Of a stretch of 64,000 bases of DNA, positions 4,797 through 28,676 are shown one piece after another. Where the stretch lies: the NCBI GenBank assembly GCA_964016885.1, contig OZ024743.1, positions 361,150,001 to 361,214,000 on the forward strand, read 5' to 3'. A model generated the notes under the pieces. That model was not told the origin of the DNA. It saw nothing but the letters and a program-made list of their open reading frames with translations, and searched no databases. The DNA comes from Eledone cirrhosa. Its lineage: Eukaryota. A program made the translations under genes and the position numbers. Numbering within the stretch: position 1 is the stretch's first letter; every line of letters starts with the position of its first letter.

Positions 4797-4877
4797 ACCC
4801 TTTGATAAGTTCAGCTAGATTCTCGCTGTACTAATACGGCTGGCTTAGTTCGGATCTAGCTGTCGAACCGGTCGGAG
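4797..4877 (+). ncRNA. Degenerate hammerhead, U3:A8 core, long stem II
   Basis: UUGAUAA at 4802, then cagcuagau...aucuagcug stem II, then GAAccgGUC. A related partial copy at 42270-42326 (minus) keeps GAAA. Stem I is poor. Confidence 0.5.
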
Positions 4878-5154
4878 ATCAGCCGTCGGTGTCTTGACTG
4901 TTTTCCTATCTCTCTCTCTCTCTCTCTCTCTCTCTCTCTCTCTATAACAGAGTGTATTATAGTGAAAACATAACAAGGACGATTGGTTACTCCTTCATTA
5001 CATTTATTGGTTGGTGACGCGTGTTTCGCCACTGATCAGCTCAAGGTTCTATCTGTATCGATCTGTATCGATCTTACACAGATTAAGCTTGACTACAAAG
5101 GGGGTGGACATCATACTAGTACCTAGGTAAGCTTTACAAGAATTTGACGGTAAA

Positions 5155-6045
5155 TTGTGGGAACGACAGAATAGACCAGATAGCTTCGACATTACTATGG
5201 GGTCGACCGACTCCGTGCAGGTTACCGATATAGTAGGCCTATACCTCCTAAATATATTAACAGATGAGATTAGGAGCATAATTAACTTAATAGTTAAAAG
5301 CGTTTCCTCTAGAGTGTCCACCCTCTCGGCAAATAGAACTATCTTCAACCAGCACGCGGAATACTATAACTCCGCACTTGAAAAGGCTGGTTACATTGAG
5401 AAGATATTTTACAATGACCCAACTATAACTGCAACGCCGCTAAACCTAATCAGTCCCTTACAAACGAACATAGACGAGGACACCACACCTAGAACAAATA
5501 ATAACCTAAGACCCTATTTAGCCGACAGGACAGGAAGCGTTACTCACAACTGCCAAAGAGATAAAGCTATACCGTCCAACCCCAATAAGGACTCTGAATA
5601 TCGCACGCGTTTCCATAGTGATAGACACCCGAGATATAACGCCAATAGAATACTAGGAACCCCTATGTCAAATATGCCTGACCAAAACGCACCCAAGCAA
5701 CCACCTAACCACAAAAACGACACTAAACACCGTAAAGCCCGAAGTAGACCTGTGACATGGTACAACGCCCCGTATTCTATACACGTTACCACCAATATAC
5801 CGGCAACCTTCTTCAGGGCTCTTGGAGAATCCTTCCCACACAAACATAAATACCACAAGCTCTTGAATAGATACACCGTAAAATTCTCTTTCTCCACAGC
5901 ACCAAATCAAGGCCACACAATATCACACACTAATAGGACAAAAATACGCAAACACATTATAGCCCCACATCAAACCACTACCACAACCCAGAACGAAACC
6001 ACACGCACAACACAACACAACAACCCACATGCCAGATCCACATAG
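5155..6045 (+). pseudogene. PLE reverse transcriptase remnant (catalytic YxDD region deleted)
   Basis: RT motif B-like MGS..S..V.DIVGLYLL joins directly to the thumb; compare the intact YRDDG region at 47729-47980. Confidence 0.8.
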
Positions 6046-6094
6046 CATTTGAATAACCAACAACGTGCCACCAAACCTGTAACTCCCAACTGAA

Positions 6095-6510
6095 ACTGCA
6101 AAAAGCTGGTAGAATGCCCACTAAACGGGGAGTGCCTCGTTAAAAACATTATTTACCGGTGCAATGTCACAGCTGGCAATAAAGAGTAATCCTATATATG
6201 TGAGACCTCCACTACGTTTAAGGAGCCCTGGTATAGCCACAGAAGCTCATTTAAACACAGGCTCAAACGATCCCATACTAGACTAGCCGATTTTATCTGG
6301 GATCTCAAGGACAAGAACATCGAATTCCAGATCATATGGTCAGTCAAAAGATGCGTGGCCCAACTTCCCAGTGACAGAAACCACTGCAGGTTATGCTTGG
6401 CCGAGGTGGCTGAGATAATTAAATTGAAATCTGCTATAACCTCTAGGTCTGACATAATTATAAATTGTAGACACACCAAGTTGAAAACCCTCTCTGCACA
6501 AATATTCGTT
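6095..6510 (+). pseudogene. PLE GIY-YIG endonuclease remnant
   Basis: CPLNGECLVKNIIYRCNVTAG..*SYICETSTTFKE...CRLCLAE...NCRH, with one in-frame stop. Confidence 0.8.
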
Positions 6511-6569
6511 TGAGGCCCGCACACTAACCATGACTCAACATAATGATAACCACCTTTGCCTTGCCACAC

Positions 6570-26800: not shown

Positions 26801-27410
26801 ATCGGTTACTCCAGTAGGACATTCTATACGATCAAGCAAGGATGTTCTAATTGCGATGCCAACACCGCCATCTCTCCGTTCATTTATGGGTTTACCTACC
26901 CCGAAAAGGGAGCAGCATGATGATACTTCTGTTAATTGATCTTCTCCCACCAAACGTGTTCAGATAAAGTTGCTATGTCTATGTTCAATCTTCTGAGTTC
27001 TTTTGTCACAAGTGCAGTTCCATATCCCGGATGTCCAGACGAGTTTCTGTCCAGGAGTGTCCTAATGTTCCAAAAACAAATGTTGAGTTTGACTCGATCT
27101 TTCGCGTAATATTTGCATTTTGCTTTACTCTTATACCTGATAGAGTAAGGCAAAGTAAGCTCAGGGCGCATGTGTGTAAACTTGTGACTGGTCAGGTCTG
27201 CCCATGTTACCATTCATCTATCACTGAACTATTTCAAAAATGGAATAGACGAAGAAAGATGTAAGAGACATCTGCACATCACTATATTACAGTGGTAAAC
27301 GCGTGTACAGCACGAGTACCACCCTATGAGTATCCGCAACTAGAGTCCAGTGACATGCCGATAAGATGACCGGGAGCTGCTCCAACCGCAGGTTTGAAAA
27401 GGCTTCCTTC
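23876..27410 (-). mobile_element. Near full-length degenerate RTE/BovB-like LINE (APE, RT, three C-terminal C2H2-like fingers)
   Basis: WNIRTLLD, ELRRLNIDIATLSE, GVGIAIR, LLGDFNAR, NYRRITLL, QRGFRGGR, LTKAFD and LLYADDA (about 25020-25040). Confidence 0.92.
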
Positions 27411-27723
27411 TCACTTAATGACACGCATACATACGAACGCTACCCAACAAACTCTCATGCATACAATCAAACACACACACCACTCACTTACACACACAAA
27501 AACAGACACAGACACACACATACACACGCAATCACACACACACTCACTCATATATATATATATATATAAGTAAGATGTATGGTAGGTCGTATGTGAATCG
27601 CGATGATCACGTCTGACTTACCAAATATGTGACGGTAGCTAGTTAAGCTCTATGCGTATACGCAGAGCAGAAATATTAGTGAAAAAGAACAAAGGAACTA
27701 TTATGACATTATAACAAGTTTAT

Positions 27724-27769
27724 TGCCGACAGCCGTTTCGTCCGACCCATGGTGGGACTTATCAAGGCA
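27724..27769 (-). ncRNA. Minimal type I hammerhead, U3:A8 core
   Basis: Reverse complement of 28630-28676 with a 1-nt indel in loop II. Confidence 0.8.
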
Positions 27770-28629
27770 TATAACATGTGATTGCAAGATCATTGTTTAC
27801 ATCAACGTATCACTCAAGGTAGCAGTTTGAAATTGTTGTATACATCAGCAACTCCGCTTGTATAGTTGGGGTCAATATTCTAAGGGGGGCTCTTTTATAT
27901 TAGTTGTCGGGGTCAGGGATTGAAGTTTAAAAATTAGACAAAAATATATAATTTACGCATCAACATTAAACTAAAAGACTTGGGGTCCCGTAGAAGCACC
28001 TTAGAAAATCCCTCAATGAGTGCATAAAGCATACAGGCTCCAATAAACCTAGAAGAAAATTAAGAGGCCAATAAGACTAGAAGAAAATTAAGAGGCTAAT
28101 AAAATAAGAAAATAAAAATATAAAGTTTCCCTAAAAAATATATAAAGTTCCTATGAAATTTCTTCTAGAGAAAAATAATTTTTTCCGAAAGAAAAAAACC
28201 TTCTTCCCCGAGATCACGTTTACAAAATTCAGAAAACTGAATTGAAAACTAGGTTGAAAGAAACTAATCAATTAGAGGTTAATTCAGAGAGCCTTCCATA
28301 AATCTCTCAGAAAAGGCCCCTTTAATATTTCCAATAGGAACTTCTTCCGAGAGACCCTTCGAAGAATTAAAATTTTAGAGAGCCTTTAAGGATAAATATA
28401 AAAACGAATTGAGGAAAATTATACATTAAAAGTTAAAAATTAAAATTTACGGTATTTGGGATATCCGAGGAAGTTTCAAAGGGCTGCTTCAACAGATACA
28501 ACTTAGGCATAATAGATACAATAATCTAAGCAACTATACAAGCGGAGTTGCTGATGTATACAACAATTTCAAACTGCTGCCTTGAGTGATACGTTAATGT
28601 AAACAATGATCTTGCAATCACATGTTATA

Positions 28630-28676
28630 TGCCTTGATAAGTCCCACCATGGGGTCGGACGAAACGGCTGTCGGCA
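28630..28676 (+). ncRNA. Minimal type I hammerhead, U3:A8 core
   Basis: ugcc UUGAUAA gucc...ggac GAAA cggcu GUC ggca. Confidence 0.82.

Follow-up and report, generated by a model that had tools for sequence, protein, structure and literature searches.

U3:A8 hammerhead motifs at the ends of Penelope-type insertions: two families and a decayed third

Hammerhead motifs and the elements that carry them

The window, meaning the whole stretch of 64,000 nucleotides analysed here, is microsatellite-rich eukaryotic DNA, in which a dispersed SINE family resembles one that is presumably from octopus genomes. Comparison of the window with itself revealed many head-to-head inverted insertions, with their 3' ends facing outward and mostly placed into (TA)n. 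All hammerhead motifs with a U3:A8 core lie at outward-facing 3' ends of such Penelope-type insertions. The original prediction was that a UUGAUAA hammerhead recurs in three families. It is complete in two of them, a 588-bp tandem unit and a fold-back element with motifs at 27765 (minus strand) and 28634 (plus strand), and it is decayed at 4802. Of the three U3:A8 families, two are well founded; the evidence for the other comes from one decayed copy.

The 588-bp unit forms a retrozyme-like tandem array at 2227..4507, which is arranged head-to-head with minus copies at 2227-3598, plus copies at 3599-4507 and (TA)n at both ends. Four hammerhead copies are intact in the array. In the plus-strand copy (4180..4267), a 5-bp stem I (4180-4184/4263-4267) encloses a type-I hammerhead with UUGAUAA at 4185-4191 (U3 4185, A8 4190) and a stem II of 57 nt; the 3' side has GAAA at 4249-4252 (G12 4249), a perfect 10-nt palindromic stem III at 4252-4261 and GUC at 4260-4262, with the predicted cut after C17 at 4262. 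The three minus-strand copies are found at 3478..3565 (N3 3560), 2890..2977 (N3 2972) and 2302..2389 (N3 2384). A further plus-strand copy, 5'-truncated at 3599..3679, has the inversion junction inside its core; GAUAA is kept, and the 5' strand of stem I is lost together with N3-U4. Two full units differ at 0 of 588 positions and the plus copies at 5 of 325, and U3:A8 is fixed across copies of 98.5-100% identity. This near-identity indicates that the array is young and that U3:A8 was already present in the transposing template. The unit has 42% GC and no long ORF (the longest stop-free stretch is 85 aa). Its three consecutive minus copies give it one defining trait of a non-LTR retrozyme, namely a tandem non-coding repeat with an intact type-I hammerhead in at least two consecutive units.

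The two fold-back arms are located at 27713..27868 on the minus strand (N3 27765, A8 27760, C17 27728, then AAUAAA) and at 28531..28687 on the plus strand (N3 28634, A8 28639, G12 28661, C17 28672, AAUAAA, then (TA)n). The left-arm motif had been predicted at 27759; it is present, but that base is the last of the minus-strand heptamer. Both hammerheads are complete, with stem I UGCC/GGCA, stem II GUCC/GGAC, GAAA, GUC and, as stem III, an 8-nt self-complement with G·U pairs. Rfam Hammerhead_1 matched both arms weakly (19 bits, E 0.25-0.27).

The motif at 4797..4892 (plus strand; U3 4802, A8 4807, G12 4865) is a decayed type-I hammerhead. Its best stem II has 11 pairs, including a 9-bp perfect helix. 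The 3' core reads GAAC rather than GAAA (A15.1>C at 4868) and the broken stem I does not close, so that the motif fails both full descriptors; the same core together with three closable stems is not found in this copy. In its best register a 4-bp stem III (4869-4872/4882-4885) leads into GUC at 4885-4887, and the element ends about 20 nt beyond the motif, ahead of (TC)n. A short register using GUC at 4871-4873 was rejected, as it requires a core A that is absent and a stem I that cannot be closed. A second copy of the family, at 42263..42325 on the minus strand, is 5'-truncated and ends in (TA)n; it consists of the 3' half only, with GAAA intact and N3 and N8 absent. It is identical to the 4802 motif at 53 of 63 letters, and from it the family's features can be read as GAAA, a stem III of 4 bp and a GUC that corresponds to 4885-4887. 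When a stem-I-free descriptor was used, the 4802 motif was the sole match in the window, against 0.078 per shuffle (1372 shuffles), a figure that is optimistic given that the descriptor was tuned post hoc. The 4802 copy is probably dead, a relic. Its U3:A8 probably reflects the state of its family, as judged from this one copy, because a double hit at exactly those two bases is unlikely at this divergence.

C3:G8 hammerheads are also present. A perfect palindrome at 28937..29222 (Hammerhead_1 29.1 bits) carries one on each arm, 29138 (+) and 29021 (−). A canonical motif with a stable stem III is found at 1831..1912 (minus strand, N3 1904) within inverted repeats 1653-1790/2058-2196, and an AT-rich one with CUGAAGA at 8246..8311 (plus strand, N3 8254, score 33 in the scan described below). 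A decayed one lies at 31199..31246 (plus strand) in the fold-back 30493-31256, the other arm of which is more decayed, and a decayed hammerhead-like motif at about 7840-7926, in a neighbouring Penelope-like element, was read as C3:G8 with low confidence. Stems I and II and the AAUAAA that follows make the neighbouring 29138 similar to the 28634 motif (P = 0.01, 55 pairs tested; nhmmer E 0.023). It is possible, from this likeness in sequence, that the two are sister motifs between which C:G and U:A were switched. The likeness is tempered by the very frequent use of GUCC/GGAC as stem II. The other motif pairs with P = 0.01-0.03 were rejected as low-complexity matches.

Penelope context, predicted folding and origin

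A Hydra-clade Penelope-like element (PLE) is the neighbour at 4963..7975 (plus strand), with a broken RT-GIY-YIG ORF at 5086-6498, a 1.4-kb 3' UTR and an inverted 5' arm at 4963-5062. The PLE identity of the ORF fragments in the window was settled by a HMMER search, in which the fragment 43795-44439 matched 2319 proteins at E ≤ 0.001. Seventeen full-length homologues were found among the best 150 of these; most have DKT and RWK/RWR and all have the CxC linker, which are described as Hydra-clade features (PMC8557442). Of 10 ORF fragments in the window, 8 had no Pfam match and the other two matched as RT fragments away from the motifs; the fragments fell into Atlas clusters that are unnamed or DUF, a word-index protein search returned one match, and a PDB search with them returned none. 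With a profile of the 17 homologues, PLE fragments were detected at 5086-6498 (+), 10004-10369 (−), 42621-43440 (−), 43834-44442 (+) and 47304-47947 (+), and no match was obtained inside or abutting any U3:A8 element. As no ORF remnant is contiguous with a U3:A8 motif, the PLE origin of the motifs rests on architecture: they stand at the 3' ends of insertions with an inverted 5'-truncated arm and a (TA)n target, although (TA)n is missing at the left end of the fold-back. Absence of an ORF is expected for 5'-truncated copies in view of the 1.4-kb 3' UTR of the neighbouring PLE. The link of the U3:A8 motifs to the Hydra clade is circumstantial.

As monomers, the hammerheads gain nothing over shuffles in folding energy (z −0.74 to +0.05), and the constrained monomer fold of 4185 lies within 1.4 kcal/mol of the MFE. 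When two copies were co-folded without constraint, a dimeric hammerhead was predicted both for 4185 (−58.9 versus −45.2 kcal/mol for two monomers, 13.7 lower) and for 28634 (−38.9 versus −30.2 kcal/mol, 8.7 lower). In both MFE dimers the palindromic stem III is intermolecular, the cores are unpaired and the stems can all close. Co-folding of the C3:G8 motif 29138 gave no dimeric hammerhead. The circular 588-nt monomer folds at −173.5 kcal/mol, compared with −135.2 ± 6.2 for 60 shuffles (z = −6.2); 18 control stretches ranged from z −2.9 to +3.5 (12 shuffles each).

Most probably, the U3:A8 motifs are type-I hammerheads at the pseudo-LTR (pLTR) tails of non-autonomous PLE derivatives, in which C3:G8 has been replaced by the isosteric U3:A8, which would cleave as the predicted dimers and in which the N3:N8 pairing would be under selection. 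Each family would be of a different kind, one being a retrozyme-like unit in tandem, one a fold-back element and one an older family that is dispersed. A transcript spanning two copies would pair the palindromic stem III, form a double hammerhead and be cut after GUC. Two cuts would release a unit-length RNA (588 nt for the array). Cleavage may thus trim or circularise the RNA, which a Penelope RT, probably one from the Hydra clade that the window contains, would copy into DNA in trans. N3:N8 would be kept paired by purifying selection for cleavage. The route to U3:A8 was most likely compensatory, with a U3·G8 wobble as the intermediate, and may have been taken more than once.

The three families had been said to share no similarity in their flanks, and local alignment of each pair of families bore this out (P = 0.21, 0.19 and 0.19); for two of them it was the core itself that aligned best. 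Three independent origins do not follow from the flanks being unrelated. It may be, although we consider it appreciably less probable, that one ancestral PLE subclade fixed U3:A8 and that the pair hitch-hiked while the families diverged fast, in which case the recurrence counts once and says little on repeated selection. The pLTRs are indeed described as fast-evolving (PMC4209133), and CGGC starts stem III both in the 4802 family and in 28634. However, 28634 is closer to the C3:G8 motif 29138 than to the other U3:A8 motifs, which suggests switching between sister motifs, and a pair that was kept while all flanks saturated would still need selection.

It is also conceivable, but unlikely, that the motif was conserved for a role other than cleavage, such as RT recognition or RNA folding, and that a U3:A8 core of low activity was tolerated. 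The available text on minimal hammerheads of metazoan PLEs reports low, dimer-dependent activity in vitro and leaves other functions open (PMC4209133), and Naiads are described as spreading without canonical hammerheads (PMC8557442). Against such a role, no catalytic base has been lost, the NUH triplet is intact, N3 and N8 still form their tertiary pair, and the dimer fold is predicted to be favoured. Selection on cleavage is the reading that we prefer.

Pairing at N3:N8 in the window and elsewhere

The core N3-U-G-A-N-N8-A/G-A-A-A/U-H with a Watson-Crick N3:N8 pair is present in the 4185 family and in 27765/28634. The heptamer TTGATAA by itself is common (22 in the window). The window was therefore assessed with a descriptor in which N3, N7 and N8 were left free and stems I-III were scored, with 334 local dinucleotide shuffles as the null. 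Ten matches scored at least 30, against 0.61 per shuffle, and seven at least 40, against 0.00 per shuffle. Six of the ten are U3:A8 (two families) and four are C3:G8 (three families; 1904−, 8254+, 29021− and 29138+), and none is mismatched; the 4802 motif is outside the ten. Among shuffle matches scoring at least 28, only 57 of 457 had C:G or U:A at N3:N8. The motif at 63605 (UUGACAA, G12>U, score 29), within the shuffle range, was dropped as evidence, and so was 16071. No match in the window reached the gathering score of Rfam Hammerhead_1 (34 bits), the canonical motifs being below it as well, and the Rfam search gave no hammerhead match for the 588-bp unit or 4802.

Under decay, cores with one mismatch are expected to greatly outnumber those in which precisely both bases have changed, and the absence of mismatched cores among the ten matches thus argues for selection. 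The claim that the variant is selected rather than a product of decay is supported in this way, and also by the fixation of U3:A8 in the 588-bp copies. The U3:A8 motifs are real and very likely selected. When families rather than copies are counted in this one window, U3:A8 makes up 2 of 5 strict families (95% CI 5-85%) or 3 of 7 relaxed ones (10-82%), with Fisher P = 0.10 and 0.029 respectively, the family numbers being small. The idea that UUGAUAA cores are inert and arose by chance, as dead C3:G8 motifs decayed or mutated towards AT, draws on the AT-rich genome with its abundant heptamers, on the visible decay of the 4802 copy and on C>T and G>A both being transitions, but it is highly improbable, since no single-mismatch core occurs among the significant matches, young near-identical copies keep U3:A8, all other core bases and all stems, and U3:A8 is retained in other sequencing runs.

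Six of the ten significant hammerheads found here would escape a census that requires CUGAnGA, and standard descriptors may thus undercount ribozymes in such genomes.

Mismatched cores as frequent as U3:A8 would have spoken for decay. They are absent from the ten matches in the window; elsewhere they are in part as frequent, in that a metagenome superfamily has U3·G8 in many insertions. In viral contigs scanned with N3 and N8 free, at least 131 loci were found; C3:G8 accounts for 129 of the 135 matches listed, at least 122 of them with closed stems. When U3 or A8 was fixed instead, each complete scan yielded 7 loci. The stems close in 2 of 3 U3:A8, 1 of 4 U3·G8, 1 of 3 C3·A8 and 0 of 1 A3·A8 cores, so that in these contigs U3:A8 is rare and does not outnumber mismatches (2 stem-closed loci against at least 122 with C3:G8).

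In metagenomes, a scan with U3 fixed gave 63 loci, with G (37), A (19), C (6) or T (1) at N8. Of those with a stem I of at least 4 bp, 16 had A (7 clusters), 9 had G (5 clusters) and 1 had T, the counts being of U3 cores. Nine of the U3:A8 loci are one tandem family with units of 214-217 bp, and another is a 154-bp array. U3:A8 is uniform across the units of the tandem arrays (5/5, 4/4, 2/2, 3/3, 3/3 and 10/10). The structured U3·G8 loci come mostly from a single superfamily, diverged and dispersed, in which one member is U3:A8; several of its entries are one locus from different samples, and many have a broken stem I. Neither blastn nor tblastn matched the window to any of the 63 loci. The metagenome data support U3:A8 in young arrays and would fit a route through the U3·G8 wobble. 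The recurrence of U3·G8 in other hosts means that mismatches are not always noise and pairing is not absolute, and the frequency that mismatched cores can reach in metagenomes counts against the strict form of the selection argument.

Known systems and the 588-bp unit

Both U3:A8 and its PLE context are already published, as is the fact that U3-A8 forms a major class in one animal; the window adds families, not the variant. Natural covariation from C3-G8 to U3-A8 was first reported by Perreault et al. 2011 (PMC3088659), where it is called rare, unlike the 2 of 5 strict families here; U3-A8 variants are active in vitro according to the same source, citing Przybilski and Hammann 2007. For Cercyon PLEs of S. 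mansoni, about 1,300 U3-A8 and about 2,000 C3-G8 hammerheads are given by Cervera and De la Pena 2014 (PMC4209133), whose Fig. S3 includes UUGAUAA and UUGAAAA as well as U3·G8 in Saccoglossus. The Cercyon motifs, as described there, share with those of the window the type I form, a U3-A8 core including UUGAUAA, a palindromic stem III with a predicted dimer and inverted dual motifs. They differ in lineage, in a stem III with a 2-nt minimum (the window motifs have inserts of 6-17 nt) and in an extra base before G10.1, which the window motifs lack; the 57-nt stem II of the 588-bp unit is another difference. The known U3-A8 class is thereby extended to further families, probably in another animal lineage, and hammerhead chemistry as known is unchanged by the finding. 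Hydra-clade PLEs (Craig et al. 2021, PMC8557442) are alike in DKT and C-terminal GIY-YIG (window ORF fragments), in RWK and the CxC linker (homologues), and in (TA)n targeting, inverted 5'-truncated arms and canonical hammerheads; they are unlike in that the U3:A8 motifs of the window are not contiguous with any ORF. The available text of that paper holds no mention of U3-A8, and a literature search by the C3U + G8A exchange notation found nothing. Further hammerhead background is given in PMC3884650 and PMC6155905.

Metazoan non-LTR retrozymes resemble the 588-bp unit as tandem non-coding repeats with one type-I hammerhead per unit and GC below 45% (Cervera and De la Pena 2020, PMC7229834; Li et al. 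bioRxiv 10.64898/2026.07.22.740005). In the available text, axolotl retrozymes show dimer-dependent cleavage (the same two sources) and animal retrozymes are derived from PLE pLTRs (Li et al.). Their units of 150-450 bp (PMC7229834) contrast with 588 bp, U3:A8 and the head-to-head inversion in the window, where the unit is known from DNA alone. Being young, strongly folded and retrozyme-like, the 588-nt unit makes the best lead and deserves follow-up more than any other part. As a young natural substrate, it lends itself to asking whether cleavage restricted to dimers is tuned by U3:A8 and a palindromic stem III. A bolder reading, which we hold to be distinctly unlikely, is that the unit is a currently active animal retrozyme of unusual size, that its U3:A8 hammerhead is dimer-dependent and its circular RNA strongly structured, that the unit is near-identical under 17 organism labels through spread between species, and that U3:A8 rivals or exceeds C3:G8 among the young families of the lineage.

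The 588-bp unit or part of it was found in 20 of the 24 sequencing runs listed (16 studies, 17 organism labels), with no RNA run among the listed holders. Four of the runs were aligned to 4080-4905, three of them contig runs and one of raw reads. None of the raw reads aligned, and no contig reached 4752-4905, where the 4802 motif lies. No alternative letter was seen at 4185 or 4190 in the three contig runs that cover both positions (3/3). In one contig run, a 621-nt contig reads as a cyclic 591-nt unit, at a depth of 7.8 as compared with 30-35 for the other matched contigs of that run.

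U3:A8 hammerheads in metagenomes and viral contigs

The U3:A8 form of the hammerhead core pair was found in every unit of six tandem retrozyme-like arrays from metagenomes, five of them with units of 214-217 bp (loci L173, L182, L186, L188 and L208) and the sixth with a unit of about 154 bp (L207). Well-formed U3:A8 hammerheads were also observed in two viral contigs (L137 and L138). A dispersed eukaryotic fold-back superfamily in the metagenomes (L148, L152, L158, L161, L163, L166, L170, L175, L177, L179, L180, L183-L185, L189, L190, L193, L195, L202 and L206) has many insertions whose core pair is U3·G8 and a single one, L166, with U3:A8. 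It is possible that this superfamily represents a natural intermediate.

The 588-nt retrozyme-like unit

The tandemly repeated 588-nt unit (window 2227-4507) is longer than typical animal retrozymes, and its circular form is predicted to fold with a z of −6.2. The inversion junction of the array, at 3598/3599, interrupts the core of a hammerhead. The unit was detected in sequencing runs bearing 17 organism labels, which may reflect related species, contamination or horizontal spread; at least half of its words were present in 13 rows of the sequencing-run search. One run yielded a cyclic contig of the unit, at a depth below that of the other contigs of that run matched to the window.

Possible decayed hammerheads and other repeats

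Two stubs, at 28695-28767 and 40706-40777, are 92% identical to each other; in each, GAAA is accompanied by a palindromic segment that resembles stem III and by a garbled core similar to UUGAUA, and the two may constitute a decayed hammerhead family. The 3' motif of the neighbouring Hydra-clade Penelope-like element (PLE), at 7840-7926, has the core C-C-G-U-C-G-A, which differs from consensus by two changes, reflecting either decay or a real variant. Another PLE-type 3' end holds a hammerhead-like stub (42375-42415) with a 4-bp stem II and a tetraloop, in which two core bases are absent. A further decayed U3:A8 hammerhead is possible at 63600-63672, where UUGACAA is combined with a stem II of 7 bp, a long stem III and the change G12>U; its score is no higher than the shuffle range.

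The window also contains several LINE RT fragments (25202-26959 and 44500-47000) and a SINE-like family of roughly ten copies of about 200 bp, among them 9591-9815, 14838-15042, 22969-23382, 34556-34753, 40787-41006 and 62384-62573.
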